This document shows, piece by piece, positions 3,733 to 30,096 of a stretch of DNA of 64,000 bases. Position 1 is the stretch's first letter; the number at the start of each line of letters is the position of its first letter. The stretch is from Flavobacteriales bacterium (lineage in GTDB: Bacteria; Bacteroidota; Bacteroidia; Flavobacteriales_F; PHOS-HE28): contig JACJZJ010000004.1 of the NCBI GenBank assembly GCA_020635675.1, positions 271,044-335,043 of the forward strand, in the 5' to 3' direction. Under the pieces are notes generated by a model. It saw only the letters and a program-made list of their open reading frames with translations. It was not told where the DNA came from and did no database searches. The position numbers and the translations under genes were made by a program.

Positions 3733-5655
3733 TCAGAACCGTACCCCGACCCCCGCCCGCCAGCCGACCCAGGCGCGCGTGAGCAGGTCCGTATGCTCCT
3801 GCTGATCGAACGCCCGGTCCGCCGCGAGCGCGGAGAGCCAGGCGTGGGTGTCGGGATCGCGCCAGTTGGAGATGAGCACGTTGAGCACCGGCCCGGCCGA
3901 GACCACGAGCCGGTCCCAGAAGGCATAGCCGTAGGTAAGCTCCAGCCTGCCCACGATGTTCACGGCGTCGACCCAATACCATCCCTCATTGACCTGTTCG
4001 GCGATGAGGGCGATGTCCAGCAGACCACGCCTGCCGATCCGTGGTTCGGTACCGATGCCGTAGTGGAAAGCCCAGGTGCTGTCCTCCCCGACCGGGGGTG
4101 ACCACCCCAGGATGTTGTGGAAGGCACGGGTGCCGGTGCGCAGGGAGAGCGTGAGGGGAAGCACGTCCGTGCTGATGGCGTCCAGGCGGTGATAACCATG
4201 CAGGGCCACGCTCAGTACGCCGATACTGACACCGGTGATCGTGTCGCTGAGATTGATGAAGCCGACCTGCGAGCCTTCGCTGCGCAGGGCGAAGTTCACG
4301 GCGCCCACCTGTCCACCGCGGACCGTGCCGCTGACCGCGTTCACCCCAAAGCTGAACTGGCCGCCGGTGACCTCCCTGGCGTAGTTCGCACCGAAGCCGA
4401 TCTGGCCGCCACCCACCGTACCCAGGGCGGCGTTCATCCCGAGGGTGAACTGCACACCTTCGATGTTCCGCCCGAAGTTGAACCCACCGGAGAACTGGGC
4501 CTTCCGCACATCGCCGAGCGCCACGTTCGCCCCGCCACTGGTCTGTGAACCGTCGACATCGGAAAGTGCGACGTTCACCCCACCGCAGACCTGGGGGCCC
4601 CGCATGCGCCCCTTGGCCACGTTGGCCCCGCCCGCGATCTGCACGCCGGCGAGCGTATCCCAGACGACGTTGGCGAAACCGCCGAGCTGCAGACCCTGCA
4701 GGGAACGCATCGCGTGGTTGATGCCACCGGAGATCTGCGCACCGTGCACCTCACGGCCGACAAGGTTGGCCAGTCCCGCTAGTTGCACACCCCGCACATC
4801 GCGGGTGTCGATGTTCAATCCGAGCCCGATCTCCGCCCCTTCCACACCCCGCGCGAATCCGCAGAACACATTGAAGGAAAAGGTGTTCACCGTGGCGGCA
4901 CCCACTTCGCCGTTCGTGCCCACTCCCGGGACCAATGTCACCTGCCACGGCGCACGATGGACGAAACCGAGGTTGGCGGCCTGGTCGAATTGACCGGCGG
5001 GCACCAGCAGCCGTGCCACGCCGAGATCCTCCACCCCGCACCGATCATGCAGGCAGATCGGCTCCAGACGTTCGACCTTTTCACGCGGGCGGATCGCGAC
5101 GAACAATTCCTGGCCCATATGACCCGGAAACACAACGGTGTCGAGGTATCCCACGCGTGAGAACAGCAAGGCGGCGCCTTCCTCCTCTCCCTTCAGGGTG
5201 AGTTCGAAACGCCCGGACGGCCCGGTGGTGACGCCGTTGGAGCGACGCACCTCCACCACACTGACCCGTCCAAGGGGAACACCGGTATGCGCATCCATGA
5301 CCTGTCCGCTGAGCGGATGTCTGGTGCGGTCCTCGGTGCGCCGCGCCAGGATCAGGTGCTCACCGCTCTCGCGCATGATGATGGCCTCCGGCAGAAGCCC
5401 GCGCATCACCTCATCCACCCGGCCGCCCTGCGCGTTGACGGAGACAAGGCTGTCCTCCGGAAGGATCCGTGAATTGTAGCTGAGCCGGAAACCACCGTCC
5501 AGAGCGACCAGTTCAAGCGCACGCGCCAGACGGACATTGCCCGCCTGCACGGTCACCGTTCGCCGCAGGATGGACTGGGCCGGAAGGGCCGTCACGATCA
5601 GGAGGCCCCCCAGTACCGCCACGAACCATTGCCAACGCTCAACACCCATCGCCAT
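3733..5655 (-). CDS. STN (secretin/TonB N-terminal signalling) domain + CarbopepD_reg domain + 16-residue tandem-repeat (predicted beta-solenoid) protein; lacks TonB plug/barrel
   Basis: Signal peptide. TVTVQAGNVRLARALELV...GFRLSYNSRIL is STN-like. SGQVMDAHTGVPLGRVSV...SGRFEL is CarbopepD_reg. About 14 repeats fit the pattern G-x-Q-h-x-G-G-x-N-x-A-x4 between residues 260 and 485. The C-terminus ends in Phe. It overlaps the fecR stop by 17 nt. Confidence 0.8.
   Translation of the reverse strand: MAMGVERWQWFVAVLGGLLIVTALPAQSILRRTVTVQAGNVRLARALELVALDGGFRLSYNSRILPEDSLVSVNAQGGRVDEVMRGLLPEAIIMRESGEHLILARRTEDRTRHPLSGQVMDAHTGVPLGRVSVVEVRRSNGVTTGPSGRFELTLKGEEEGAALLFSRVGYLDTVVFPGHMGQELFVAIRPREKVERLEPICLHDRCGVEDLGVARLLVPAGQFDQAANLGFVHRAPWQVTLVPGVGTNGEVGAATVNTFSFNVFCGFARGVEGAEIGLGLNIDTRDVRGVQLAGLANLVGREVHGAQISGGINHAMRSLQGLQLGGFANVVWDTLAGVQIAGGANVAKGRMRGPQVCGGVNVALSDVDGSQTSGGANVALGDVRKAQFSGGFNFGRNIEGVQFTLGMNAALGTVGGGQIGFGANYAREVTGGQFSFGVNAVSGTVRGGQVGAVNFALRSEGSQVGFINLSDTITGVSIGVLSVALHGYHRLDAISTDVLPLTLSLRTGTRAFHNILGWSPPVGEDSTWAFHYGIGTEPRIGRRGLLDIALIAEQVNEGWYWVDAVNIVGRLELTYGYAFWDRLVVSAGPVLNVLISNWRDPDTHAWLSALAADRAFDQQEHTDLLTRAWVGWRAGVGVRF
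4203..4878 (-). repeat. in-frame tandem array of ~14 x 48-nt (16-codon) repeats inside the STN-domain gene
   Basis: Protein-level periodicity: GVQLAGLANLVGREVH / GAQISGGINHAMRSLQ / GLQLGGFANVVWDTLA / GVQIAGGANVAKGRMR / GPQVCGGVNVALSDVD and further units. Confidence 0.7.
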
Positions 5656-7220: not shown

Positions 7221-10200
7221 TCAGCGCAGGAGCAGGATCGCGCCCGACTGCGTTCGGACCTCGCCGTCCGCGCCGATCACATCAAGCGCATAGAAATACG
7301 TGCCTTCCACCAGGCGTTCGCCGGAAATGCCACCTCGGCCGTCCCAGGCCACATGGGCAGCCTGTCGTTCGAGAACACGTTCGCCCCACCGGTTGAAGAT
7401 GGACAAGTGCAAGGCGGCGCCATCCGGAGCATCCAATTCGATGATGTCGTTGTTGCCGTCGCCGTTCGGTGAGAACACGTTCGGCACCGCGACCTCACAA
7501 GGACCGAAGGTGACGTTCTGCGTGCCGCTCACTCCACAGCCATCGGCATCGAGCGCCTGGAAGGAATACGCCCCATCCTCCGTAACGGTCAATGTCCCGC
7601 CCAGATCCCCAGTGCTCCAGAGCACGTCGGAGAGGTCATCCGGAAGAACGATGGTGTATGCAGCTCCCGCACAACCCAGGACCGGTTCGAAGTCGATGAC
7701 CAGCCCGGGCAGGACGATCAACGTGTCCATTGCAGGATCCCCATTGCAGCCCGCAAGTTCCGCGACACAGCTGTATACCCCGGCCTCCCAACCGTCCAAG
7801 GGTCCCAGCTCCACGGATGGGCCGAGTATCGTGCCCACGGGCGTGTTCCAAATCGTTCCGGCGCCGGGCTCGACCTCCGCAGTGAGCGTGATCGTGCCAC
7901 CCACGCATGCCTGCCAGGGGCCATCGAGCTGGGGCGGACCGGGGCGGGGGTATACGGTGATCTGGACCGGTACGGGCTGGCCGTTGCAGATCGCGTCGCT
8001 CTGGGACACATAGAAGATCGTGTCGTTGACCAAGGGCCCCACGGTGAGCGGACCGCCCGTGCCGATCGGCTGACCGGATCCCGGATCGGTGAACCATTCG
8101 ATCAGACCGGAGCCCATGGCATCCAGATCCACATGGTCTCCCGCGCATGCACTGGTATCCGACACCGTCAACGGTTGCGCGAACGCATGTTCTTCCACGA
8201 TCACGACATCGCTCGTATCCGCGCAACCCAGATCGTCGAGTACGATCACCTGGTAAGCTCCTGGTCCCGTGACCTGTAGGAACTGGGACGGTACGGCGAC
8301 CGGCTCCCAGAAGTAGAATGCCTGTCCCGGCAGGGCCTCCAACAATGTGGTGTCGCCGGGACACAGGGTGATCGGTCCGGGATCGAGGACCTCCGCATCG
8401 GCCGTTCCGGCAAGGACCGTGATGTGCGCCAGATCCACGATGCCGCATGAAGTGATCGAACAGGTATAGGTGCCCGGGTCGGAGATGACCTGCGACAGGG
8501 CACTACCGGAAAGCGGTGGCAGCCATTGAATGGCCGTGGCAGCGGGTGCCACAACGGTCACGGTGACGAGTTCACCGGCGCAGAGCACATTGTCCTCCAT
8601 ACCCGTGTCCAGGTAAGGCGTGCCGTACTGCCCGGTCATGACGGATGCAGCGCTTACGGCGCACCCCTCGGCACTCACCATGTCCACACCGTATTCGCCC
8701 GGCTCCTGCACGTAGATCGATGCGGACGTATCCGGAAGAACGCCATCCGGCCCGTACCATTGGAATCCGGTCCCGGGCTCCAGCACGGTGAGCAGCACGG
8801 AATCTCCCGGGCAGACCATGCCATCGCTCGGTTGCATGGTGATGGTCGGTGGGAAGGGGGTATCGACGAACACGATACCGGGAGGCGTCGGCCAGCCGCA
8901 GCCGATGCCCTGATCGTAATGCAGGGCCTGGTAGAAGAAAATGCCAGGCAGATCGACCAGCGCGGTATCCGGGGTCCCGAAGACACCCGCCAGATCGGTC
9001 CCCGACCAGATCACGGAATCGCAGTCCATACAATTCGAGAGGAACAGGAGGACCGTATCCCCCTGGCAGATCAGCTGGTCGCTGGGAGGATCGAAGGTGG
9101 GCAGGGTGACACGGAAAACGAAGATGCTGTCCGAGGCGGAGAAGAAATACTGCTCCGACCCGCATGGCGCATTGCTCACGCTGATGTTCACCGTGAACGG
9201 GACCCATCCGTCCGTGAAAGCGCCGACGGACCAGGAGATGGAATCCGATGCGTAGACGGTGCTCGGCAGGCAGCCCAGATCGGTGTTGGCCTGTATGGTG
9301 GTACCGGTCGGCAGGTCCACCGGCACCCCGTTCTCGTACCACGTGATGGTCAGCGTACCTCCCGTGCAGCCGATCAGGTCGCACATCACCACCGAATCCT
9401 GCCCGAGGGGCACCCCCCCGTAATAGAATTGGAAGTCGGCGCCTGTCAGGTCCGGGATATCGAGCGCACCGCCATAGATCGCGGGTATGCTGTTCACCGC
9501 TCCGCATCCGGCCGCATTGAAAACGGAGATGGTATAGAATGCCGTCGTGTCGGCCCAGACCGTATCGCCGGGCACAGGCACGCCGTTGACATACCACTGC
9601 AAGCTGTCCACACCGATCAAGGTCGACGGCCATATGGGAACGGGTGGACCACAGATCTGGATCGGCACTCCCTCGAACAAGGCGACGTCCACGTTGATGC
9701 CCAGACCGTCCGTCAACAACACCGTGGGATACGGGGACACGGTCACGTGCACCGAGTCCGTGAACGCAGGACATCCGCCAGGCACGGTGATGGAACAGCT
9801 GTACCAACCCGTGGATGTGGGCGTGATGGTGGGCGTGGTCTCCCCGGTGTTCCAGTGGAATTCGAGCGCGGGACCATTGTGCGCCGGATGGGGCGTGCCC
9901 GCCTGGGACCATTCCGAGAATGTCTCCACGTTGAGGAATGAGGGTGTTCCTCCCGGTGCGGGGGGATAGCAGATCGTGACCGAGTCCTGGCAAGGCAACA
10001 GGTCGTTCGCGAGAATGCAGGGCGTGAGCGCGTCACGCACGCATGCACCACCCTGTTCGCGTTGCCAGAAGTCGTACGGAGCTCGTCCGTCGACGAACGC
10101 CCTGGCCACGAAACCATCCTGCTGACCGTTCGATGCCAGTGCGTCGAAGGACCCGTACTCCGGATCATCGCAATAGATCGGCAGGCCACCGTTCACGGAT

Positions 10201-11600
10201 GAGGCAGGGACCGTGCCCGGCCATACCAGACCGCCGGATGGGAAGATCAGGTGGTCCGCGTAGGAACCACTGAACACCAGCTCCCCATCCAGCGTCCAAA
10301 GAATGCCGCCTGCGCGCTTCGCGTCCTGCCCACCGAACTGCTGCGCCTGTGTGAACTGGAGGTCATCGCCGTGGAACCGTGCGATGAAAAGGTCCTGCTG
10401 ACCTGTAGCCGTGAACGGACCGGTCCCATAATGGTCCTGCATGCCACTGAACGCGCACTGGAACGTACCGAGCATCGCCAGACTGTCACCGGCCAGCGCG
10501 ATACCGCCCACGGAGACAGGATGATCCGAACCGATGGACACAGCGCTCAACAGCTGGCCATCCGGATCGGTGCGGAGCACATAGCAGGCATGGTCGCCGT
10601 CCATGGGCACGACGTCGGGCTGATCGTCCAGGTAGAACAGATCACCGCGGGCGTCGCCGGCGAGCAGCAGATCACCGCCAGGCGCGATCACTAGGTCGCG
10701 CACATGGGTGAACAGGGCACCACCGTAACGCAGGAACCATTGTTCCTGCCCCGCGGCGCTGTACTTCACGAGGAAGGTGGCGTTGTAGATGCCGTTGGGA
10801 TGGGGCTGATCGAAGGTGATGGTGTCACTGAACTGACCTGTCACGTAGATGTCTCCAACAGGGTCCGATACCACATCGATCGCGCGGTCGGTGTACTTCG
10901 CGGCACCCTGTCGCACCCAAAGCAGGGTACCGGACTGGTCGTAGCTCACGATGAACACATCGAAGCCGGGCATCAACGTCAATGGGTCGGGCATGCTGGT
11001 GATCGACGTGTTGTCGAACCACATCTGGCCCTTGAAATCACCGGCCACGGTGACCTGTCCTGCGGGGGAAACGGTGATCCCGTACGGTCGTTCACCGCCC
11101 GCCGTGCTTCCCGCGGTGTTCAACCAGATACGCTGTCCGCTCGCTCCATCGAGCTTCGCCACGAAAACATCCGGAGTGCCTTGAGCTGAATACACCAGTG
11201 AATCGAACAGAACGGCCGTGCCCATGAACTGCCCGCAGACAAGGATGCTGCCGTCCGTTGCCGGGAAGATCCTGGTGCCGCGATCGATCGCATTGCCTCC
11301 ACCGGTCACGAGCCAGTCCAGGGTGCCGTCCGGCTCCCATTTACCTACGAATACATCCCGTTGGCCTGCGGATTGGAAGGCCATCCCCCCCACGGTCATC
11401 GTGGCGCTGAACTCACCGGTCGCGATGATGCTCCCGCCTGGATCGATCCGGATGTCGGCCACGTGGTCGGCGCCAAGACCACCGATGTCGATCGCCCAGT
11501 GGTCCTGGGCGATGCCATGTGCGTGCAACAAAAAGATCACAATAGGAGCGATGCAAACGCGCGACACCCTCCCCGATCCGAAGCAATGGTGACGTTTCAC
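7221..11600 (-). CDS. giant cell-surface adhesin-like protein: SBBP beta-propeller repeats + multiple Ig-like (CxGD..LL) repeats + T9SS type-B C-terminal sorting domain
   Basis: N-terminal signal peptide. Repeated D.G...DVFVAK-type SBBP units. The C-terminal VPNVFSPNGDGNNDII...GTYFYALDV matches the gliding-motility C-terminal domain (type B CTD). Confidence 0.85.
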   Translation of the reverse strand: MKRHHCFGSGRVSRVCIAPIVIFLLHAHGIAQDHWAIDIGGLGADHVADIRIDPGGSIIATGEFSATMTVGGMAFQSAGQRDVFVGKWEPDGTLDWLVTGGGNAIDRGTRIFPATDGSILVCGQFMGTAVLFDSLVYSAQGTPDVFVAKLDGASGQRIWLNTAGSTAGGERPYGITVSPAGQVTVAGDFKGQMWFDNTSITSMPDPLTLMPGFDVFIVSYDQSGTLLWVRQGAAKYTDRAIDVVSDPVGDIYVTGQFSDTITFDQPHPNGIYNATFLVKYSAAGQEQWFLRYGGALFTHVRDLVIAPGGDLLLAGDARGDLFYLDDQPDVVPMDGDHACYVLRTDPDGQLLSAVSIGSDHPVSVGGIALAGDSLAMLGTFQCAFSGMQDHYGTGPFTATGQQDLFIARFHGDDLQFTQAQQFGGQDAKRAGGILWTLDGELVFSGSYADHLIFPSGGLVWPGTVPASSVNGGLPIYCDDPEYGSFDALASNGQQDGFVARAFVDGRAPYDFWQREQGGACVRDALTPCILANDLLPCQDSVTICYPPAPGGTPSFLNVETFSEWSQAGTPHPAHNGPALEFHWNTGETTPTITPTSTGWYSCSITVPGGCPAFTDSVHVTVSPYPTVLLTDGLGINVDVALFEGVPIQICGPPVPIWPSTLIGVDSLQWYVNGVPVPGDTVWADTTAFYTISVFNAAGCGAVNSIPAIYGGALDIPDLTGADFQFYYGGVPLGQDSVVMCDLIGCTGGTLTITWYENGVPVDLPTGTTIQANTDLGCLPSTVYASDSISWSVGAFTDGWVPFTVNISVSNAPCGSEQYFFSASDSIFVFRVTLPTFDPPSDQLICQGDTVLLFLSNCMDCDSVIWSGTDLAGVFGTPDTALVDLPGIFFYQALHYDQGIGCGWPTPPGIVFVDTPFPPTITMQPSDGMVCPGDSVLLTVLEPGTGFQWYGPDGVLPDTSASIYVQEPGEYGVDMVSAEGCAVSAASVMTGQYGTPYLDTGMEDNVLCAGELVTVTVVAPAATAIQWLPPLSGSALSQVISDPGTYTCSITSCGIVDLAHITVLAGTADAEVLDPGPITLCPGDTTLLEALPGQAFYFWEPVAVPSQFLQVTGPGAYQVIVLDDLGCADTSDVVIVEEHAFAQPLTVSDTSACAGDHVDLDAMGSGLIEWFTDPGSGQPIGTGGPLTVGPLVNDTIFYVSQSDAICNGQPVPVQITVYPRPGPPQLDGPWQACVGGTITLTAEVEPGAGTIWNTPVGTILGPSVELGPLDGWEAGVYSCVAELAGCNGDPAMDTLIVLPGLVIDFEPVLGCAGAAYTIVLPDDLSDVLWSTGDLGGTLTVTEDGAYSFQALDADGCGVSGTQNVTFGPCEVAVPNVFSPNGDGNNDIIELDAPDGAALHLSIFNRWGERVLERQAAHVAWDGRGGISGERLVEGTYFYALDVIGADGEVRTQSGAILLLR

Positions 11601-11655: not shown

Positions 11656-14600
11656 TCATCGGAGAATGGTGAAGTATCCCCTCAGCGTGGTCATGTGGCC
11701 TTGGACATCGCGTACTTCGAGCACATAGTAGTATGTACCGTCCGGCACTGGCTCGTGCGTGCTGTCGTAGGTCACATCCCAAGGCACGTTGACAGGATCG
11801 CCCGAATGGACCAACACACCCCAGCGATCATAGATCCTGACCTCCCCACCGATAGCGCCCACAAGGCCCAGGGAGAAGGTATCGTTCGTGCCATCCCCGT
11901 TCGGGGTCACCACGTTCGGCGCGACCGGAGGACAGTCGATCTCCTGCACGAGCAGCGTGTCGGCGGTCGGGCAGCCATTGCCATCGAATACGGAAACGCT
12001 GAAGGTCCCGCCGTTCTGGACCGTGATGCTCGTGGTGGTATCGCCGGTATTCCAGATCGGACCCGAATAGCCCGATGGGACCTCCAATACCAGTACCGAT
12101 CCGGAACAGAGCGTCATATCAGCACCCAGATCGAAAGGGGTCGGTGGATACACTTCGAGGTAGACGCTGTCCGCTGCGCCCGTACAGCCGTTCACCGCCG
12201 GCACGATACCATACCAGCCCTCATCCGACGGTTGCGCAGGACCCACCACGAGCACCGTCCCGGAATAGCCCCCGATCGGTGTCGACCAATCCACCGCAAG
12301 GCCCGCGGGGCCTTGCACTGACAACGTATCCACGGCATCCAGACAGAGATGGCCCGGTGCGATGAGCACCACATCCACCGGAACAGGCACCACGTTGACC
12401 GCGATCGACAACGGCTGACCGGTACAGCCCATGTCCTCCTGGACCAGGTAGACGAACAAGCTGTCCGTCGGTGCACTGATCACGAGGTTGCCGCCCATGC
12501 CCAGTGGGATCTGCAGTGCCGGGTCCGCATACCAGATCAGGCTCCCGCTGCCAATGGCCTCAAGCATGGCATCAGCACCCTGGCAGATGGTCACATCCTC
12601 CCCTTCCACGGGAAGGGTCGGTGTCAGCATCGTCAAGTACAGATCACCCTGAGCCGCACATCCCAACGGATCGGTGGCCGTCACCCCTACCACGCCCTGT
12701 TGATCGGTGATCAGGAAAGGTCCCATGCTTCCATCGGACCATTGGGGATCCGTGTAACCAACTGGAAGGTCGAGATAAAGAGTGGAACCCGGGCACAAAG
12801 CAGTGTCCGCACCCAGGTCGATCGGTGCCGGCTGATGCACGTATAGATGAACACTATCCGCCGCGCCTGTGCATCCTGCGATACCGGCGATAGCGATGTA
12901 CCAACCCGAATCCGAAGGTCCCAAAGGTCCAACTTGCAACGTATCCATGGCGAACAGGCCCTGCGGTGTATTCCATTCCACCAGGAAGGGTGAAGGCACC
13001 ATGGTCACGAATTGTACCGTTCCTCCTTGACAGACCGTATCGGAGACCATCGCCAGGTCGATATCAGGTGGCTGCACCACGTTCACCACCACGGGCCAGG
13101 CCGGGTTGGTGCACGCACTGTCCGATCGCACCAAGTAGAGCATCAAGGTGTCCATCGGCATACCCAGATCAAGTTGCGCCCCGAACCCCATCAATTGGGT
13201 GAGCGCACTGTCCGCATACCAGGCCAGGTCCCCAGGGGCCGTCTCCTCCAACACGACCGGATCGCCCGCACAGACGGTGATATCCGAGATGGTCAACGGT
13301 CCGCCCATATCATGAAGAGAGACCAGGACAGCCGCACTGGTATCGGTGCACCCGTTGCCATCCAAAGCGACCAATGTGTAGTTGCCGGGTTCGGTGACCG
13401 TCAAGGTGCTTCCGAAAACGGCTCCGGGCATCCAGAGGTAGGCCGCCTGACCACCTTGTGCGAGGAGATCGAGCGTATCACCCGGGCAAAGGGTGAAGGG
13501 ACCCGGGTCGACGACCTCGGCCTGGGCGGTCCCCATGATGATATCCACGCTCAACAGCGTGGTGATCCCACAGGCCTGGACGCTGCAGGAATAGGTGCCG
13601 GGTTGGTCGACCAATTGCTCGAGGTCGCTGCCGCTCAGGGGTGCATCCCATGCGAGCGAGGATGCTCCCGTGGTGACCACCTGCAGAAGAACGGGATCCT
13701 CATCGACGCAAAGCACACCGTCGGGCAACACGTTCAGGAACGGCGTTGCATATCCAGTGACGAGGATCGGATCCGAAATGAGGTAGCAACCATTGGTATC
13801 GATCAGTTCCAGATAGTACTCACCTGGCCATGTCACGTCGATCGAGTCGTTGTTGATCGCGATCTGCCCAATGGGTCCATACCAATCGTAGCTACCCAAT
13901 GCGTTGGTATAGACCGTGGCAATGGAATCCGGGCAAATGATACCATCGGATGGAAAAACGTCCAGCTCGGGCACATCCGGGAATTGGATCACATGCCAGG
14001 CCGTTTCCGAGAAGGAACATCCGTTCGTGTCGACGACCGTACCGGTCACTTGATAGAAGCCTCCGCCCAAGGCAAGCAGACTATCGCTCCATTGCGCGAG
14101 GATCCCACCTCCCGACCAGGCAATGGCGTCGCAGCTGTCACAGGCGGCCACCAACAATGCCGTATCCGAGGGGCATATCAGGTCGGGCGCGTCCAACACG
14201 ATATCCACCGGTGTGGCCGGGTACAGGTGGACATGAATACTGTCCTCGGCGATGTCAGGCAGCTGCAACGAATCCGAACCACAAGGACCGTTGAACACAA
14301 TAACGCTGGCCCAATCATGGCTCCACCCATCCGCGTTCGCGGCCACGGGCGCGGCCCAAGGACCCGGGTCCAGGGAAAGGTGTACACCACCGTCGATGAT
14401 GTACACATACTGCAGGCCATTGGGCGGTGTATAGGGTGATCCGTTCAGGTACCACGTGGGCGTGACCAGAACATTCACGCCCTGGTAAGGACACAGGTCG
14501 AGGGAATCGTTCTGATCGGTGTCCTGGGGATAGCTGATCACAAGTTCCACAGTCATGTTCGGAATGGCCAGAGTGGGCAGATCGATCACTTGGACATGAT

Positions 14601-16668
14601 TCTGGGTGGTACAACCGAACGGGGTGACCATGGTGAACGTATAGGTACCACCGGTATCGACCACCAGCGAATCATCGAACACCTGTCCCCCAGGCCAATG
14701 CCAAAAGAAGGTGGTGGCGGTGTCCGCGTTGCTGCACCATAGCAGCGCACTGTCCGGATCGCAAATGCTCGCCTGCCATGGCAATGGCGAATCGTTCACC
14801 GGTGTCACGTCATCCGAGAGCAGGGGCTGCGCCGGCCAGGGGTGCACCGCCACATGGATGCTATCGCTCAGGACGAGGCAACCGCTGCTCGATGTACAGG
14901 TGACCGCATACGTGCCCGTGGTGTCCACATAAAGAGAGTCGGTCGTGTCACCCGTATTCCATGCGAAGTCCAGATCGGGACCGACGAAGAAGAGACGGTG
15001 ATCGATGTGGAAAGAGAACGCAGGATCGATACCGATGATCGTTCCGCCGCAGACACTGATGGTGTCCGGACAGGAGAACGCCATGGGACCCTCGCCGAGG
15101 CACAACCCACCCGGCATGTAGCTGCACGGTGGGCCATTGCGCTCCCACCAGTCATAGGGCGCCCTACCTGGTACGTAACCGCGCGCGATGAACCCATCCT
15201 TCAATCCATTGCTGGTATCGGCGGCGAAATTCCCGTAGTGGGGGTCGCCGCAGTATCCCGACGGGTTCGGCGTCATGAGGAGATGCGGACCGCTGAAGGA
15301 GGTGATGTCCGCGGTGAAAACGTCCTTGCACGGAAATACGATCAGGTCCTCATAGCTGCCGCAGAAGACCGGTGAGCCATCCAGAAGTGTGGTGATCTGA
15401 CCGGCGAGCTTTTCCTCCCGCCCACCGAATTGCTGACCACCCATGACGTAGAGACTGTCCAGATCGTGCTGAAGGAGGAACAGGTCCTGAGGGCCCGTCG
15501 CCATCCACTGTCCAGTGTGGGTGCTATCCACCCTGCTGGTGAAGCTGCAACTGAACTGGCCCAGCACGCTTACGATACCGTTGCGCTCATCCAAGGCCCG
15601 ACCACTGATCAGGCCCTCGGAGGTGACCACCGTGTCGGCCGTCAATTGGCCGTTGGCGTCGACCCGGAGGAGATAGTACGCATAGGGAGCGCCCGCGGAG
15701 ATCAGGTCGGGAACGCTGTCCAGGAAGATCATCGTCCCCTGCAGATCACCGACCAGGAGCAGATCGTCCATGCTCGACCATTGGATGTCGCGCACATGGT
15801 CGAAGACCGCACCGCCCACTCTCCGGAACCACACCTCGTTGCCGGCAGGATCCAGCTTGAGCAGAAAGGTCGCATTGTACATGGCGTTCGGATGGGTGGA
15901 CACGAACTGGATCGTATCACTGAACTGACCTGCCACGTAAACGTTACCGGCTCCATCATGCACCACGTCGATCGCGCGGTCGGTGAACTTCGCGCTGCCC
16001 TGCACCACCCAAAGAGGTGTGCCACCCGCTGCATAGGAGGCGATGAAGACATCGACGCTTGGATCAAGTGAATTGGGGTCCAGCATGCTTGTGAGCGAAC
16101 TTCCCGCGATGTCCGCGGTCCCGCGAAACTCCCCGGCCATGGTGACGCCACCGCCAGGTGCGATGCTCACACCATAAGGACGGTCGCTCGACAGGGCACC
16201 CCCGCCCCTTGTCGCCCAGACCAAGTTGCCGGTGCTCGCATCCAGAAGGGCCAAAAAGATGTCGGGGCCACCGGCTGACGTGAGCGACTGCCCCATCAGG
16301 TCCGCGGTGAACATGAATTCGCCGACTACGGCGACCTGGCCGTTGCCAACAGCGAGCTTGATACCGCGATCGATCCCAGGCCCCCCACCCTGTCTGAACC
16401 AGATCACTTGGCCGACGGGCGACATTTTCGCAACAAATACATCGATGCCCGCGCTGGACTGATGGACCACTCCGCCGAATGTGATACTGCCACTGAACTC
16501 TCCTGTGAGGTAGATGTCACCCGCGGCATCAGACTTCACATCCGACACGTGATCGTTTCCCGGGCCACCGATATCAGTTGCCCAAAATGTCTGTGCCTCG
16601 ACCATCGCCACTCCTGCAACCTGCAAAAGCATGCATAACAGCACCCGATGAATGGCGTTCGGACCCAT
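11656..16668 (-). CDS. giant cell-surface adhesin-like protein, paralog of the 7221..11600 gene (SBBP + Ig-like repeats + T9SS type-B CTD)
   Basis: Same architecture as its neighbour. About 50% identity in the SBBP region. The CTD is NVVTPNGDGTNDTF...GTYYYVLEV. Confidence 0.85.
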   Translation of the reverse strand: MGPNAIHRVLLCMLLQVAGVAMVEAQTFWATDIGGPGNDHVSDVKSDAAGDIYLTGEFSGSITFGGVVHQSSAGIDVFVAKMSPVGQVIWFRQGGGPGIDRGIKLAVGNGQVAVVGEFMFTADLMGQSLTSAGGPDIFLALLDASTGNLVWATRGGGALSSDRPYGVSIAPGGGVTMAGEFRGTADIAGSSLTSMLDPNSLDPSVDVFIASYAAGGTPLWVVQGSAKFTDRAIDVVHDGAGNVYVAGQFSDTIQFVSTHPNAMYNATFLLKLDPAGNEVWFRRVGGAVFDHVRDIQWSSMDDLLLVGDLQGTMIFLDSVPDLISAGAPYAYYLLRVDANGQLTADTVVTSEGLISGRALDERNGIVSVLGQFSCSFTSRVDSTHTGQWMATGPQDLFLLQHDLDSLYVMGGQQFGGREEKLAGQITTLLDGSPVFCGSYEDLIVFPCKDVFTADITSFSGPHLLMTPNPSGYCGDPHYGNFAADTSNGLKDGFIARGYVPGRAPYDWWERNGPPCSYMPGGLCLGEGPMAFSCPDTISVCGGTIIGIDPAFSFHIDHRLFFVGPDLDFAWNTGDTTDSLYVDTTGTYAVTCTSSSGCLVLSDSIHVAVHPWPAQPLLSDDVTPVNDSPLPWQASICDPDSALLWCSNADTATTFFWHWPGGQVFDDSLVVDTGGTYTFTMVTPFGCTTQNHVQVIDLPTLAIPNMTVELVISYPQDTDQNDSLDLCPYQGVNVLVTPTWYLNGSPYTPPNGLQYVYIIDGGVHLSLDPGPWAAPVAANADGWSHDWASVIVFNGPCGSDSLQLPDIAEDSIHVHLYPATPVDIVLDAPDLICPSDTALLVAACDSCDAIAWSGGGILAQWSDSLLALGGGFYQVTGTVVDTNGCSFSETAWHVIQFPDVPELDVFPSDGIICPDSIATVYTNALGSYDWYGPIGQIAINNDSIDVTWPGEYYLELIDTNGCYLISDPILVTGYATPFLNVLPDGVLCVDEDPVLLQVVTTGASSLAWDAPLSGSDLEQLVDQPGTYSCSVQACGITTLLSVDIIMGTAQAEVVDPGPFTLCPGDTLDLLAQGGQAAYLWMPGAVFGSTLTVTEPGNYTLVALDGNGCTDTSAAVLVSLHDMGGPLTISDITVCAGDPVVLEETAPGDLAWYADSALTQLMGFGAQLDLGMPMDTLMLYLVRSDSACTNPAWPVVVNVVQPPDIDLAMVSDTVCQGGTVQFVTMVPSPFLVEWNTPQGLFAMDTLQVGPLGPSDSGWYIAIAGIAGCTGAADSVHLYVHQPAPIDLGADTALCPGSTLYLDLPVGYTDPQWSDGSMGPFLITDQQGVVGVTATDPLGCAAQGDLYLTMLTPTLPVEGEDVTICQGADAMLEAIGSGSLIWYADPALQIPLGMGGNLVISAPTDSLFVYLVQEDMGCTGQPLSIAVNVVPVPVDVVLIAPGHLCLDAVDTLSVQGPAGLAVDWSTPIGGYSGTVLVVGPAQPSDEGWYGIVPAVNGCTGAADSVYLEVYPPTPFDLGADMTLCSGSVLVLEVPSGYSGPIWNTGDTTTSITVQNGGTFSVSVFDGNGCPTADTLLVQEIDCPPVAPNVVTPNGDGTNDTFSLGLVGAIGGEVRIYDRWGVLVHSGDPVNVPWDVTYDSTHEPVPDGTYYYVLEVRDVQGHMTTLRGYFTILR

Positions 16669-16925
16669 GTCCTTGGGTGGTCGTTTGGAACGACTTCACT
16701 TGGAAGATACCCTTTCCGTCCATTCCGCTGCCTGGCCTGCGTCCCACAACTTGGAAATATCCCGGGGCGATATGCACTTCCGGCTCTCCCGGGCGAGATG
16801 ACGATCGGTCGCGTGCAGGGATGCAAGGCTGACGGATCGGCACAAGTCCGAAATCCAACGTGCCGATCGGTCCGGTCCGGGAACACGGTATCCCCTTTGA
16901 TGGACCCTGCGCAGATGATCTTATC

Positions 16926-19571
16926 ATGGACCTGAACAAATTCACCATACGATCGCAGCAAGCCATTCAACAGGCGCAGACCATCGCAACCGGGCATGGC
17001 CATCAGATCCTGGAGAATGGGCATCTGTTGAAGGGCATCCTGGAAGTGGACCAGGACGTGGTGCCGTTCCTGCTGAAGAAGCTGAACGTCAACGTTCCCA
17101 TCCTCACCCAGGCGCTGGACCGCATCGTGGAGGGCTATCCCAAGGTGCAGGGTGGCCAGATCAGCTTGTCCCGACACAGTAGCAACGCCCTGACCAAAGC
17201 CCTCGCCGCGCTGAAAGAATTCGGCGATGAGTTCGCCAGCGTGGAGCACCTGTTGATCGGTATCCTCGAGAGCGGCGACACCGTGGCCCAACTGCTGAAG
17301 GACAACGGTGTCATTAAAAAGGACCTGATCTCGGCGATCAAGGAACTGCGTCAGGGGCAACACGTGACCAGCCAGAGCCAGGAGGAGACCTACAATGCCC
17401 TTAGCAAGTATGCAAAGGACCTGAACCAACTGGCCAAGGAGAATAAGCTCGACCCCGTGATCGGGCGCGACGAGGAGATCCGCAGGGTGCTGCAGATCCT
17501 CAGCCGGCGCACGAAGAACAATCCGATCCTGATCGGTGAACCCGGCGTGGGCAAGACCGCGATCGCCGAAGGCATCGCACAACGCATTGTCAGCGGCGAC
17601 GTACCCGAGGACCTGAAGGAGAAGAAAGTATTCAGCCTGGACATGGGTGCGCTCGTGGCCGGTGCCAAGTACAAAGGCGAGTTCGAAGAGCGTCTCAAGG
17701 CCGTGGTGAAAGAGGTCGTGTCCGCCGAGGGCCGCATCGTGCTGTTCATCGATGAGATCCATACCCTGGTGGGTGCGGGCGGTGGTGAAGGCGCCATGGA
17801 TGCCGCCAACATCCTGAAGCCCGCACTGGCGCGTGGGGAGTTGCGCGCCATCGGCGCCACCACCCTGAACGAGTATCAGAAGTACTTCGAAAAGGACAAG
17901 GCATTGGAGCGACGCTTTCAGAAGGTGATGGTGGACGAACCCTCCCGTGAGGACGCCATCAGCATCCTTCGTGGCCTGAAGGAGAAGTACGAGAACCATC
18001 ACAAGGTGCTGATCAAGGACGGTGCGATCATCGCGGCCGTCGAGTTGAGCACGCGCTACATCAACGACCGCTTCCTGCCGGATAAGGCCATCGACCTGAT
18101 CGATGAGGCGGCCAGCAAGCTCCGCATGGAGATCAACAGCAAACCGGAGGAGCTGGACGAGGTGGACCGACGGATCATGCAGTTGGAGATCGAGCGCGAA
18201 GCGATCAAGCGCGAAAAGGACGAGGCCAAACTCGCCGACATCAACAAGGAGCTCGCCGAGCTGGGCGAAAGACGGGACGGCCTGCAGGCCCGCTGGCAAA
18301 GCGAGCGCGGACTGGTCGAACGGATCAACACCGCGAAGGAGCAGATCGATCAGCTCAAGTTCGAGGCAGGTCAGGCCGAAAGAGAAGGTGACTTCGGAAG
18401 GGTGGCGGAGATCCGGTACGGCCGGATCAAGGAGACGGAGGATGAATTGGCGAAGGCCAAGGAAGAGCTCACCCGGCTGCAGGAGACGAGCAAGTTGATC
18501 AAGGAGGAGGTGGACGTGGAGGAGATCGCCGAAGTGGTGAGCCGATGGACCGGCATCCCGGTCTCCCGCATGATGGAAGCCGAACGAACCAAGCTGCTGA
18601 AGCTCGAGGACGAGTTGCACAAACGCGTCATCGGGCAGGATGATGCGGTGCGCGCAGTGGCGGATGCGGTGCGACGCAGCCGCAGTGGCCTTGGTGACGA
18701 GAAACGGCCCATCGGCAGTTTCATCTTCCTGGGTACCACCGGCGTGGGCAAGACCGAGCTGGCCAAAGCGTTGAGCGAGATCCTCTTCAACGACGAGAAC
18801 GCGATGACGCGGATCGACATGAGCGAATACCAGGAACGCCACAGTGTTTCCCGTCTGGTGGGCGCACCTCCGGGGTACGTGGGTTACGACGAGGGCGGCC
18901 AGCTCACAGAGGCGGTGCGCCGCAAACCTTACAGTGTCGTGCTGCTCGACGAGATCGAGAAGGCCCACCCCGATGTATGGAACGTCCTGCTACAGGTGCT
19001 CGACGATGGGCGCCTCACCGACAACAAGGGCCGGGTGGTGAACTTCAAGAACACCATCATCATCATGACGAGCAACATCGGCTCGCACATCATCCAGGAG
19101 AATTTCGAAGGTCTGGAGAAGAAGGACGTGGAGGCCGTGGTGGAAAAGACCCGGAAGGAAGTGATGGACCTGCTGCGCAAGTCCGTTCGACCGGAATTCC
19201 TCAACCGCGTGGACGAGGTGATCATGTTCCACCCGTTGAGCCGCAGGGACGTGCGCGAGATCGTGCAGATGCAACTGCATGCGCTCCTGCGGAAGTTGGA
19301 GGAGAAGGACGTTCACCTGATCCCGAGCGACGAGCTGATCGACCACATCGCCACCGTGGGCTTCGACCCGCAGTTCGGTGCGCGCCCCATCAAGCGCATG
19401 ATCCAGAAGGAACTGCTGAACGAGCTCAGCAAGCAGATCATCGCCGGCACGCTTGAAATGGGCAAGCCCCAGGTGATCGATGTGTTCGACGGCAAGATCG
19501 TCTTCCGCAAGCCGATAGGTAGCAAGGAGCGCGAAAACGGGAAGGTCAAGAAAGCGAAGAGCCAGCTGTGA
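16926..19571 (+). CDS. clpB: ATP-dependent chaperone ClpB
   Basis: Clp N domain. Two AAA+ modules ([28 protein letters not shown]). A middle coiled-coil. The true ATG is MDLNKF; the track ORF starts at an upstream GTG. Confidence 0.95.
19365..19516. repeat. direct repeat copy 1 (native clpB 3' end); matches 20442..20593
   Basis: An 88-bp core is identical except for 1 mismatch. The flanking 60 bp are roughly 80% identical. Confidence 0.8.
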
Positions 19572-19591
19572 GCCCCTTTCCAGCAGAACCC

Positions 19592-19612
19592 GGTCCGAAC
19601 CGGACCGGTGCC
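19592..19612. terminator. GC-rich hairpin (CCGGTCCG-AAC-CGGACCGG) between convergent clpB and the FISUMP gene; no U-tract
   Basis: Perfect 8-bp inverted repeat lying 20 nt after the clpB stop. Confidence 0.35.
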
Positions 19613-19627
19613 ATGGATCCGGCTATT

Positions 19628-20374
19628 TCAATCCCTGATACAACGCACACAGAGACCCAGCTTCTTCTCGTTGCTGTTCCTGCCAATGCCTGCATTGTTG
19701 TAGTTCAAGTGGCGAAACCAACAAGTGTCCGCTCCGCTCTCTGATGCACTCCACCAGTAGCCATAGAGACCAATGTTACCGAAGCTGCCGTTCAGATTGC
19801 GGTAACCACCAGGGAAGCCAGAGAAACCGCTCGCATTCGTCGCCCCAATGTTCGGCGGGTACCAGAGCGTGGCTGCCTTCAACTTTCCGCCCACAGACTG
19901 GATCTCGCCACGATAGCCCGTTAGGTCCGACTCACTGACCATCAGGCCCAAGCTGACCTCCAGTTGCTTCCACTCGGCATCGGAAGGCACATGCCAACCC
20001 TGGGGGCAGAGGCCGGCGGGGTCTTCCACGGCGTACCAATTGTAAAGCTTGCCATAGATGCCATCGTTGGCGGGGGCATTGGAATAGTTGCACCATGCAC
20101 CGGTCGACAGGTCCGCCCAAACACTGTTATCCGTCACCTCGGGGATCGGCGAGCCGTTCCTGAAGTGGGTGGTCCGCAGATCGGCGGCCATCCAGCACCT
20201 ACCACCGACATGTACCACCGAATAGCCATGGCCATCGGCATCGATCACGGTTCCCATGCCACCACAGCCCTGCTCGTAGGGATCAGACGCCCCTTCCTCG
20301 TTCTTGCGGCAGGCCATGGCTGTTGCGACAATGATCGATCCAAGAGCGATCGGTTTCGCGTATTTGCACCGCAT
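19628..20374 (-). CDS. lipoprotein with Fibrobacter-succinogenes-major-paralogous (Fib_succ_major/FISUMP) domain
   Basis: Lipobox ATAMAC. The motifs GKLYNWYAV...CPQGWHVPSDAEW...GYR and trailing W/Y pattern are typical of the TIGR02145 domain. GC is visibly lower (about 50-55%) than the flanks. Confidence 0.8.
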   Translation of the reverse strand: MRCKYAKPIALGSIIVATAMACRKNEEGASDPYEQGCGGMGTVIDADGHGYSVVHVGGRCWMAADLRTTHFRNGSPIPEVTDNSVWADLSTGAWCNYSNAPANDGIYGKLYNWYAVEDPAGLCPQGWHVPSDAEWKQLEVSLGLMVSESDLTGYRGEIQSVGGKLKAATLWYPPNIGATNASGFSGFPGGYRNLNGSFGNIGLYGYWWSASESGADTCWFRHLNYNNAGIGRNSNEKKLGLCVRCIRD

Positions 20375-20441
20375 GGCGCAATGAAGTTAGGCCCCCGCTG
20401 CGAAATTGGTCCGCCCCATTCTCGTTCGTGTACACAGTGTC

Positions 20442-20663
20442 GACCCACAGTTCGGTGCCCGTCCGATCAAGCACATGATCCAGAAGGAATTGCTGGACGA
20501 GTTCAGCAAGCAGATCATCGCCGGCACGCTTGAAATGGGCAAGTCCCAGGTGATCGATGTGTTCGACGGCAAGATCGTCTTCCGCAAGCCGATCGATGGC
20601 AGGGAGAACGGCGGAACCAGGAAGCGCAACCGGTCCAAGGCCGCGACGGAGGACCGTTCATGA
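20442..20663 (+). pseudogene. orphan duplicated 3' fragment of clpB (encodes the last ~60 aa of ClpB, then diverges to its own stop)
   Basis: Translation [51 protein letters not shown] is near-identical to the ClpB C-terminus. The upstream AAA+ body is absent. Confidence 0.75.
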
Positions 20664-20824
20664 AGTGCCTGGGGTGGGCGGATGTGAGTTTTCCACCGGT
20701 CCGGTCGTGACCGTCAGGGGAACACCGCGATCGTGGGATCGATCGTGAAAAACCCATGCGTCGGGTCACGGCCCACATCGACGAACGGACCTAGCTTGCT
20801 CCCGATCAAGGACAGAAGCGAAAG

Positions 20825-21268
20825 ATGACCCTGCACCACGCATTGGATGAAATGAATTCCACCCTGCGCCGCACCCGTGCGCGTCTCCTCGCCCCGCTCG
20901 ATCTGGGGCAACAGGTGGTACCCGACGACCCGGAGATCTTCGTCGAGGACGTGCTCCTCTACGTGATGGACGAGTGGGGTGCCGACCTGCGCGAACAAGG
21001 GCATGTGCTGGAACAGGACGAGGAGTGGAAGGATGAGGAGAACCATTTCCCGCTGTTCCGCCTGCACCTGAGCGGTGGCCGCACCCTGTTCCTGCATTTC
21101 ACCGGACACTACCCCGAACACCTCCATTTGACCGTCTCCAAGGCGATGCGTCGCATGCACCAGTTCAGCGACGCGGAAATGTTCACGTTCCGTCTGCCGG
21201 TGACCATGGATCCCAACGTCCTGTTGTTCGGGCTGATCGATGGCATGAAGCAGATGGTGATCGCCTGA
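20825..21268 (+). CDS. hypothetical acidic/His-rich protein (147 aa)
   Basis: GC3 is strongly biased, unlike the overlapping antisense ORF. I recognised no domain. Confidence 0.55.
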   Translation: MTLHHALDEMNSTLRRTRARLLAPLDLGQQVVPDDPEIFVEDVLLYVMDEWGADLREQGHVLEQDEEWKDEENHFPLFRLHLSGGRTLFLHFTGHYPEHLHLTVSKAMRRMHQFSDAEMFTFRLPVTMDPNVLLFGLIDGMKQMVIA

Positions 21269-29795: not shown

Positions 29796-30074
29796 ATGGG
29801 AAAAGGTGACATGAAGTCGAAAAAAGGCAAGCGCACCGCCGGCAGCCGTGGCAAGAGCCGCCCTGCCAAGCGCAAGTCGAGGGTAGCCGCCGCCAAGAAG
29901 GCGACCGCCAAGAAGAAGGCCGCGCCGAAGAAGAAGGCAGCCGCCAAGAAGAAGGCCGCGCCGAAGAAGAAGGCAGCCGCCAAGAAGGCCGCACCGAGGA
30001 AGAAGGCAGCCGCCAAGAAGGCCGCGCCGAAGAAGAAGGCAGCCGCCAAGAAGAAGACCGCCAAGAAGAAGTAA
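29796..30074 (+). CDS. histone H1-like Lys/Ala-rich basic DNA-binding protein
   Basis: 92 aa that is almost entirely a K/A/P repeat, (AAKKKAAPKKK)n. An underlying 36-nt DNA tandem repeat runs about 29893..30055. Its own TAnnTTTG motif and a strong terminator suggest it is a real gene. Confidence 0.7.
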   Translation: MGKGDMKSKKGKRTAGSRGKSRPAKRKSRVAAAKKATAKKKAAPKKKAAAKKKAAPKKKAAAKKAAPRKKAAAKKAAPKKKAAAKKKTAKKK

Positions 30075-30096
30075 GGCGCTCGACCAACAGAAGCAA

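Follow-up and report, generated by a model that had tools for sequence, protein, structure and literature searches.

Additive recombination as the probable origin of a duplicated clpB 3′ end bracketing a lipoprotein gene in uncultured Flavobacteriales

How the 3′ end of a chaperone gene comes to lie twice on the same strand, with an unrelated lipoprotein gene between the copies, is the question raised by clpB in a 64,000-nt stretch of DNA from a Flavobacteriales bacterium (GTDB lineage PHOS-HE28; assembly GCA_020635675.1, contig JACJZJ010000004.1, positions 271,044 to 335,043 of the forward strand), the whole of which is here termed the window. A preliminary reading of the letters without database searches, below called the sequence-only reading, had taken the arrangement for an insertion or recombination scar at the clpB end with the chaperone reading frame intact, and considered the mechanism unknown. 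The first part is supported, as clpB is intact, the second copy is truncated and no integrase or insertion sequence was found nearby. The second part can be amended to some extent, as the anatomy of the locus and its recurrence elsewhere fit described processes, namely single-crossover integration of a circle or homology-facilitated illegitimate recombination (HFIR), that displace the 3′ end of a gene. The locus is probably the scar of an additive recombination event, by single-crossover (Campbell-type) or one-sided homologous integration, in which the resident clpB 3′ end was displaced.

The repeat, the orphan and the gene between them

Resident clpB (16923 to 19571, plus strand; ATG at 16923, with an alternative GTG at 16860) is intact and encodes 882 amino acids with the Pfam domains Clp_N, AAA, AAA_lid_9, AAA_2 and ClpB_D2-small. 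Its product is 86 and 84% identical to the ClpBs of two Flavobacteriales metagenome-assembled genomes (MAGs), L003 and L004 respectively, and an exact-product look-up for it returned no record. Copy 1 of a 167-nt direct repeat lies within the gene at 19363-19529 on the plus strand (codons FDPQFG...RKPI and the first tail codons), and copy 2 is at 20440-20606 in the same orientation, with 92% identity and a spacing of 1077 bp; the recurrence and its distance had been correctly noticed at the outset, and this is its extent. The upstream copy completes the 882-aa gene while the downstream copy is 5′-truncated. Identity is unevenly distributed along the repeat: 19363-19428 matches copy 2 at 58 of 66 positions (88%, where about 80% had been estimated), the 88-nt core at 19429-19516 matches at 87 of 88, the single mismatch being as originally read, and the tails that follow, tail A of ClpB (19517 to 19571, plus strand; 17 residues and the stop codon) and tail B of the downstream copy, are 58% identical with indels up to their stop codons (z 2.7). 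Tail A is similar to the Lys-rich tails of relatives, such as KPVGEKEKNGKTKKSKVEV. A 40-mer of the core occurs exactly twice in the window and never twice in 100 dinucleotide shuffles, no further repeat copies were found in the window, and within it this is the sole long dispersed repeat apart from two paralogous giant CHU_C genes.

Copy 2 together with tail B constitutes an orphan clpB 3′ fragment (20440 to 20663, plus strand) in an open frame of 85 codons (20406 to 20663). About 92% of clpB is missing from it, the last 68-74 of 882 codons being left, and it matches PF10431 at positions 42-78 only, the second half of D2-small (E 2.9e-9), which with its own stop codon at 20663 confirms the initial description of it as an orphaned ClpB C-terminus. 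Four amino acid differences within the repeat, R to H, N to D, L to F and P to S, are derived in the orphan; L003, L004 and L084 keep the resident ClpB residue at all four positions, and one database fragment, P0162, also has Ser at the last of them. A fifth difference, F to V, is at the boundary codon. In the variant represented by L001/L085 a G-to-T change at 20649 converts a Glu codon of the orphan tail to a premature TAG; it is one of just two single-nucleotide polymorphisms across 6.5 kb between samples, and is consistent with the orphan being unconstrained. Because of the derived amino acid changes and the segregating stop codon, the window orphan appears to be a decaying relic that has no function.

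Between the two copies, as had been noted, is a single minus-strand gene (19628 to 20374) for a 248-aa predicted lipoprotein with a Fib_succ_major (FISUMP) domain (PF09603, E 4e-47), the match to which is full-length (161 bits versus a cut-off of 33.9; profile positions 1-187 of 187). The N-terminus, read by eye, is of the lipoprotein type with a signal peptide and Cys22. The residues after the lipobox Cys are CRKNEE here (19628-20374), CKKDKDD in the cargo FISUMP protein of locus L092 (8001-8735) and CKKDDD in that of locus L094 (2661-3422). They presumably resemble the Bacteroidota lipoprotein surface-export signal, and so the cargo FISUMP proteins are probably surface-exposed.

The composition of the gene proved less distinctive than the 50-55% guanine-plus-cytosine (GC) content, against about 65% around it, that had been attributed to it: its GC content is 58.2% versus a window mean of 61.6% (standard deviation 2.0 for windows of equal length; 4th percentile), the lowest 300-nt window has 54.7%, and GC at third codon positions is 0.70, within one standard deviation of 35 long open reading frames (ORFs) of the window (0.75 ± 0.06). 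Composition, whether GC or codon usage, was accordingly rejected as a sign of foreign origin, the contrast being small and within the range of the window genes. Nor did the idea that the scar is a product of FISUMP paralog expansion find support. The best homologs elsewhere are at most 58% identical, no close donor having been found above that level, there is no second FISUMP gene in the window, and the link to expansion is unsupported because similar scars, described below, bracket an OmpA-like protein, a small secreted protein and a six-gene kinase/phosphatase/vWA island.

clpB and the FISUMP gene converge on a perfect 8-bp GC hairpin (19590 to 19608; CCGGTCCG-AAC-CGGACCGG) with a folding energy of -26.4 kcal/mol (z -2.7), which looks like a bidirectional terminator. 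Behind the orphan, at 20696 to 20713, there is a degenerate counterpart (CCGGTCCG..CGTGACCG) that matches 19591-19610 at 17 of 20 positions and has no stable fold left (z -0.2); it is weak evidence for a relic of the clpB-FISUMP hairpin. Global alignment found no significant homology beyond the stop codons of the two copies, such homology being backed by the hairpin-arm match alone. On the other side, the FISUMP start is preceded by a 65-nt spacer (20375 to 20439) that terminates at a novel non-homologous joint between 20439 and 20440. The spacer has no homology to clpB upstream of 19363, so homology is lost sharply at the joint, where neither inverted repeats nor a target-site duplication was found. 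No integrase, transposase or reverse transcriptase (RT) domain was detected in ORFs of at least 150 aa within a region that extends about 15 kb upstream and about 12 kb downstream of the repeat, in agreement with the earlier impression that no insertion sequence or integrase is nearby. A scan with the sigma-70 consensus, which does not cover Bacteroidota promoters, gave no match.

The FISUMP-to-orphan joint is present at 99.8-100% identity in six independent contigs (L001/L085, L002, L086, L089, L090 and L091), which come from four WANG18 samples, a Joint Genome Institute (JGI) metagenome and one further ENA assembly with MEGAHIT-style contig names; three of them (L001, L002 and L086) span both repeat copies. 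Two further contigs, L087 from Logan and L088 from another ENA assembly, carry just the orphan tail or the downstream gene. Among the contigs with the neighbour gene or the orphan no empty-site or variant allele was found, all having the same arrangement. By this comparison of contigs, made without reads, the repeat is not a collapse or expansion of the assembly.

The ancestral position of the orphan

Which of the two clpB ends is the older at this site can be judged from the right flank. The orphan is followed by an intergenic region (20717 to 20824, plus strand) and then by a conserved 147-aa gene (20825 to 21268, plus strand) that belongs to no Pfam family and marks the ancestral right flank. 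Homologs of the latter, 51-59% identical, are found behind clpB in L003, L004, L083 and L084. In L003, L083 and L084 clpB is separated from the 146-aa gene by about 160 nt that contain neither a FISUMP gene nor a duplication, and these spacers share with 20717-20824 the blocks GATCGTG.A.AACCC and TAG.TTGC; in L004 a different gene is behind clpB instead of the 146-aa gene as direct neighbour. From the orphan stop codon to the start of the 147-aa gene is 162 nt, versus 160 nt from the clpB stop in L003. The wider gene order, giant CHU_C, clpB, the 146-aa gene, His_Phos, CarbopepD_reg, DnaJ and aminotransferase, is common to the window, L003 and L004, the two Flavobacteriales MAGs that are the closest genomes found.

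As the stop distance and the spacer blocks match those of clpB in relatives, it is the orphan that occupies the ancestral position, and it follows that the DNA upstream of it, the FISUMP gene with the new clpB end, is the addition. On this positional reasoning the orphan appears to be the displaced old end. A metagenome scan with the 147-aa neighbour gave two distant loci only (57-59% identity), both with plain clpB followed by the neighbour. Among 80 species representatives of GTDB, a scan that misses islands of the size of those in L101 and L102 (see below) revealed neither a further clpB C-terminus nor a FISUMP gene within 6 kb of clpB. The concern that relatives might instead have a full second clpB paralog is also answered, since clpB is either unduplicated in them or accompanied by partial fragments no longer than 214 aa, and a complete second copy occurs in none.

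Recurrence in related lineages

A search with the ClpB C-terminus yielded many short ClpB fragments on long contigs, two of which were traced to the same contigs as FISUMP homologs and then looked up with others. In six other lineages an intact or 3′-complete clpB is followed by 1.2-7.5 kb of varied cargo and then by a 5′-truncated clpB 3′ fragment of 300-664 nt on the same strand. L092 has as cargo a FISUMP gene of 244 aa and has two orphans. L094 has three units, with FISUMP genes of 440 and 253 aa and a 370-aa ORF, and one orphan behind each; that ORF (3804-4916), a toxin-antitoxin-like gene directly behind an orphan, has a weak RES-domain match. On the 3.66-Mb contig L095 the cargo is a 165-aa protein with a signal-peptide-like N-terminus, and a 143-aa orphan is followed by a MazF-like toxin. 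On the 655-kb contig L096 an OmpA-like protein is followed by the orphan, a hairpin and a FISUMP gene of 436 aa. L098-L100, an arrangement present on at least 24 contigs, has a FISUMP gene of 437 aa and one orphan. The finished chromosome CP129489.1 (L101) has a cargo of about 6.8 kb and a 664-nt repeat of 87% identity. A further possible instance is L102, where, past an island of about 9 kb, there is a ClpB-like fragment that has diverged greatly (36% amino acid identity).

Every orphan extends to the clpB 3′ end. The left boundaries, counted from the stop codon, vary: -209 in the window, -361 in L094, -385 in L092, -395 in L096, -412 in L095 and -645 in L101; the DELIMFRPL boundary common to L094 and L092 is also that of L099. 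Orphan arrays range from one in the window through two in L092 to three in L094. An 88-nt identical tract is found only in the window, mismatches being spread along all the other repeat pairs. No integrase, transposase or RT domain was found in the islets of L092, L094, L095, L096, L098/99 and L101.

The contents of some of these islets merit separate description. The cargo of L101 (3339-9917) is a minus-strand six-gene operon for DUF4407, a Ser/Thr kinase, a PP2C phosphatase, a vWA protein, a PLD-like protein with a DnaJ domain and DUF6804, exactly bracketed by the clpB end and a 214-aa orphan, and it looks like a conflict or defence system. The island of L102 (892-10215) includes a kinase-AAA protein and an 838-aa HSP70-like protein, with the ClpB-like fragment at 9817-10161. 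Toxin-antitoxin-like genes are directly behind orphans in L092 (6785-7325; a PIN toxin and a small partner) and in L095 (10430-11067; a MazF/PemK toxin and a small partner). In L096, about 2 kb past the orphan on the minus strand (12588-13013), there is a 141-aa protein with a borderline match to GIY-YIG nucleases (22.2 bits versus a cut-off of 22.6).

Not all short database entries for ClpB are orphans. The candidate P0154/L097 was rejected, its clpB being split into 735 and 146 aa by a frameshift or sequencing error, and some short database 'ClpB' proteins are split-gene artefacts of this kind; other short fragments from the C-terminus search that possibly are such were left out of the counts. 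Between the split clpB of L097 (7789-10441, on a 1.87-Mb contig) and the 147-aa gene lies an islet of about 5.5 kb (DUF5122, PIN, Fic and ADP-ribosylglycohydrolase). Two fragments on different contigs, P0164 and P0175, have in common an 8-residue insertion, ILSRLSGI, in the otherwise invariant FDPQFGARP, and the ClpB C-terminal fragments P0165 and P0180 have other in-frame insertions.

The origin of the orphans is more evident in these related loci than in the window. Divergence was measured on ungapped homologous pairs alone, the ratios of nonsynonymous to synonymous substitution (dN/dS, omega) from a multiple alignment having been discarded as inflated by non-homologous 5′ columns. By this measure the L096 orphan differs from its own resident by a dS of 0.52 and a dN of 0.034, and L094 orphan 1 from its own by 0.63 and 0.054. 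The L095 orphan has 90% identity with the resident of L099 and 77% with its own; that of L096 is 91% identical to the L092 resident, and that of L092 is 90% identical to the L101 orphan. The orphans in the related loci thus appear to be foreign (xenologous) alleles and not local duplicates. The clpB of L099 is 88-96% identical to those of other lineages upstream, and only 75-79% over the last approximately 300 nt, a drop from which it follows that the clpB 3′ end has a separate history. The adjacency of clpB end, hairpin (AACAAAGGCTCC..GGGAGCCTTTGTT) and minus-strand FISUMP gene is found behind the resident in L094 and L099, and behind the orphan in L096; therefore the clade possessed a clpB-end-FISUMP module that could be donated, and it is the orphan that retains the older surroundings. 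An origin from two alleles is clear in L096, L094, L095 and L092, whereas the window offers a mosaic of 88, 99 and 58% identity with just nine differences in 150 nt.

How the clpB end may have been displaced

The following course would account for the window. The ancestor would have had clpB, a spacer of about 160 bp and the 147-aa gene. DNA of about 1.08 kb would have come from a related lineage that had a FISUMP lipoprotein gene tail-to-tail behind clpB, its 1077 bp being made up of 209 nt from the clpB end, 56 nt of spacer that include the hairpin, the FISUMP gene (747 nt) and the 65 nt that precede its start. Joining of the fragment ends would have created the joint between 20439 and 20440, and the circle would have entered the resident clpB end by one RecA-type crossover. 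The product would be clpB with the incoming, donor-derived tail A, the hairpin, the FISUMP gene, the displaced end, the old spacer and the 147-aa gene, the displaced end consisting under the circle model of the left part from the donor and tail B of the resident. The 88-nt core would stem from the crossover itself, as crossover or heteroduplex tract, or from subsequent gene conversion, and the functionless orphan would then decay. In a variant of this scheme, by HFIR, a linear fragment would have undergone a homologous crossover at the left and an illegitimate joint at the right, in which case the whole orphan would be the old end of the resident. We infer the circular intermediate, the dependence on RecA, the direction of transfer and the origin of the core, and for the window itself it is by analogy that we arrive at the direction of the event and the crossover point.

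Several features are in keeping with displacement of this kind. The edges of the 88-nt tract coincide with switches in identity, and the ten differences, nine in the first 66 nt and one in the next 92, have by hand calculation a binomial probability of about 0.002 under uniform decay; the mosaic would fit two diverged parents and a crossover or conversion tract. That only fragments which run through the clpB stop codon leave clpB intact would explain why all orphans reach the 3′ end, and random ends of donor fragments would explain the varying left boundaries. Homology at the locus is one-sided because clpB is the sole strongly conserved flank, the downstream neighbour being 49-63% identical between lineages or absent, and this may be why clpB is the gene chosen. 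Gene gain at this locus probably runs on clpB homology, without an integrase, across related uncultured Flavobacteriales.

Some points weigh against displacement by incoming DNA and need to be kept in mind. No donor and no empty-site allele of the window lineage was found, the nearest clpB relative having 86% protein identity. Recombination is inefficient at 12% sequence divergence. The signal from the window itself, five synonymous and four non-synonymous differences from the resident (nine in 150 nt; omega 0.2), is weak and would also fit local duplication and decay. The whole arrangement is shared by L094 and L099 at 74% DNA identity, so some orphans are old and yet open, which a purely neutral relic does not predict. 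Boundaries in L092, L094, L095 and L096 cluster at -361 to -412, just upstream of D2-small, and clustering is not expected from random fragment ends. It is also possible that a recombinase encoded elsewhere in the genome acts in trans.

A more far-reaching proposal, which is tentative and has the odds against it, is that in this uncultured Flavobacteriales clade the clpB 3′ end serves as an integrase-free landing pad, where repeat-bracketed circles loop out, re-enter other lineages and stack. A circle that loops out may carry one repeat and may re-enter via a single RecA crossover, and the circulating cassettes may be surface lipoproteins, outer-membrane proteins, toxin-antitoxin pairs and defence-like operons, with some orphans perhaps additionally kept as free D2-small-domain proteins. 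A pool of this kind would correspond, for a housekeeping gene, to the episomal rhs 'tips' proposed by Jackson et al.

Alternative explanations

Of the rivals to displacement by homologous recombination, the one that survives best, though unlikely, is that a family of site-specific integrative elements attaches at the clpB 3′ end; the FISUMP unit would then be a remnant without integrase, mobilizable in cis or in trans and akin to a cis-mobilizable element (CIME), and the arrays would be due to tandem accretion. Restoration of a target gene's 3′ end by the incoming element is well known, one gene end is used repeatedly here with arrays of up to three units, and there is island-like cargo in the form of PIN and MazF toxin-antitoxin pairs, Mrr_cat, Fic and the kinase/PP2C/vWA operon. 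This has to be set against the lack of any integrase or recombinase domain both in the window scan and in seven related loci, which include a complete bracketed island in a finished genome. Furthermore, identity between the long repeats (154-664 nt) is 77-89%, without a shared core at a fixed position, their left boundaries range from -209 to -645, and no link of clpB with attB and an integrase was found in the literature searched.

A local event without horizontal transfer has only a slim chance of being correct. It would consist either of templated repair, with about 280 nt of the clpB end filling a break upstream of a FISUMP gene already present, or of the later trimming of a tandem duplication, followed in both cases by decay of the extra copy. 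The window orphan does have the window's own clpB as nearest relative (94% over 155 nt), all four amino acid changes within the repeat are in the orphan and the composition of the FISUMP gene is not foreign. Decay after such an event sits poorly with differences that are far from uniform (88, 99 and 58%) and with a tail B that differs from tail A by indels and yet looks like a genuine ClpB tail; family-level relatives have no FISUMP gene at the site, orphans in the related loci are clearly foreign alleles, and a tandem duplication would double the cargo, which is not duplicated.

Similarly small is the probability that the orphans were selected as stand-alone ClpB D2-small-domain proteins, for instance as modulators of hexamer assembly. 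Five of them (L092, L094 orphan 1, L095, L096 and L101) have the whole of D2-small in an open frame, with a 5-aa in-frame insertion in the copy of L092, and omega is 0.07-0.09 in the two cleanly measured cases, L096 and L094 orphan 1. The boundaries cluster just upstream of the domain start in L092, L094, L095 and L096, an internal Met (in LIMFRPL) is available as start, and the conservation of one arrangement between L094 and L099 at 74% DNA identity points the same way. Low omega, though, is equally expected for fragments recently cut from functional foreign genes. The window orphan is half a domain with changes at residues kept in the compared relatives and a segregating premature stop, orphans 2 and 3 of L094 and the 5′ part of the L099 orphan are frameshifted or interrupted, and there is no conserved start codon or upstream region.

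That the locus is an assembly chimera of two strains differing at the clpB end, whose paths through a de Bruijn graph might in theory be linked by the 88-nt identical core, is scarcely credible, since the diagnostic joint lies beyond the shared core and so cannot be produced by graph bridging, six independent contigs of various samples carry it, three of them spanning both repeat copies, and a like architecture is present in the 3.66-Mb contig, the 655-kb contig and the finished chromosome.

Other candidates were rejected outright. Insertion of an insertion sequence or transposon lacks a transposase, terminal inverted repeats and a target-site duplication, and for an integron cassette there is no integrase, the sole hairpin, at 19590-19608, being a plain 8-bp GC stem without the GTTRRRY core. 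Fib_succ_major is presumably a target domain of diversity-generating retroelements, but the repeat here is in clpB and not in the FISUMP gene, the differences (G/A, G/C, C/T, C/G and A/G) are not confined to adenine, the scanned ORFs have no RT domain and no copy of the FISUMP 3′ end was found elsewhere in the window.

Wider meaning and other window features

The window alone is a small neutral scar. Together with the related loci it provides a natural, multi-lineage example of gene gain by one-sided homology, which has been proven in the laboratory and is rarely documented in genomes outside toxin loci. It suggests why some highly conserved genes adjoin hypervariable islets: between diverged lineages they are the sole usable anchor, and the need for an intact conserved gene filters the products of recombination. 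Duplicates of conserved genes that are 5′-truncated could mark, and date, such acquisitions in MAGs. For annotation, short 'ClpB', 'TssH, partial' and 'hypothetical' ORFs behind clpB in these MAGs are relics and not genes.

Two other features of the window are of note. Adjacent giant paralogs on the minus strand (7221-11600 and 11656-16668; 1459 and 1670 aa) have CHU_C-like, gliding-type C-terminal ends and stretches 74-81% identical at an offset of 5092 nt, and such a gene pair precedes clpB in relatives too. At 29850-30089 about 10 tandem 15/18-nt units encode a Lys/Ala-rich (AAKKKA-type) C-terminal tail, with a stop near 30072, and the protein with this tail resembles a histone-H1-like or basic-tail protein.

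Comparison with known systems

The closest experimental parallel is from E. coli, where a PCR product indicative of duplication of part of the homologous lacZ end was obtained from 56 of 60 Lac- recombinant clones, and sequencing of 14 of these confirmed duplications of 109-950 bp (PMC3240628). The explanation given was that linear DNA underwent trimming and recircularisation and then entered by a single crossover that depended on recA (PMC3240628). This Campbell-type integration shares with the clpB loci one homologous segment, one illegitimate joint and a flanking duplication of the 3′ end, the size of the latter being 154-664 nt at clpB; the E. coli reaction needs no site-specific recombinase, and the clpB loci would need none. 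The E. coli system was a laboratory one with conjugated suicide plasmids and identical homology (PMC3240628), whereas the clpB case is natural and between sequences 11-23% diverged. In HFIR during natural transformation a one-sided conserved anchor likewise admits non-homologous DNA (PMC3240628, PMC5361080), which suits a locus where clpB alone is conserved. In classical HFIR a stretch of recipient DNA about as long as the insert is usually lost, and the joint shows 3-10 bp of microhomology (PMC3240628); at clpB, in contrast, recipient DNA is duplicated and not deleted.

Displacement of a gene end by incoming DNA is best known from polymorphic toxins. For rhs, a 'C-terminal displacement' model has homologous recombination via circular intermediates leaving arrays of orphan tips (PMC2935791), and HFIR-based displacement has been proposed for immunity arrays of the Vibrio type VI secretion system (T6SS; PMC5361080). 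As in rhs (PMC2935791), the cdiA-CT orphans of contact-dependent growth inhibition (CDI) and the Vibrio T6SS arrays (PMC5361080), at clpB an incoming 3′ end would take over together with downstream genes and the old end would be pushed downstream, where it keeps homology to the conserved part; repeated rounds give orphan arrays, and no integrase is involved. The ends in rhs, CDI and T6SS are distinct toxin domains with cognate immunity genes, and their arrays are thought to be selected, whereas the ends at clpB are alleles of one housekeeping chaperone and equivalent to each other, what is gained is unrelated cargo and the orphans look like by-products. A polymorphic-toxin locus was itself rejected, all the ends being ClpB D2-small with a Lys-rich tail and the cargo being lipoproteins, OmpA-like proteins, toxin-antitoxin pairs, the kinase island and others.

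There is also a likeness to islands and CIMEs at the 3′ ends of tRNA or protein genes, in which the gene end is restored, the displaced fragment remains as the far direct repeat and tandem accretion occurs. Such elements depend on an integrase and on a core that is short, identical and fixed in position, and at the clpB loci no integrase and no core of this kind was found. Integron arrays, too, consist of mostly small, often single-gene units in either orientation, added by a fixed point with older ones pushed back; the clpB loci differ in that they have no IntI, attI or attC and that what recurs in them is part of a housekeeping gene. The feature works like C-terminal displacement or duplicative single-crossover integration, and differs from the known cases in that it is a housekeeping chaperone whose end is displaced, in its recurrence across a clade and in that the genes gained are unrelated to the one that provides the homology.

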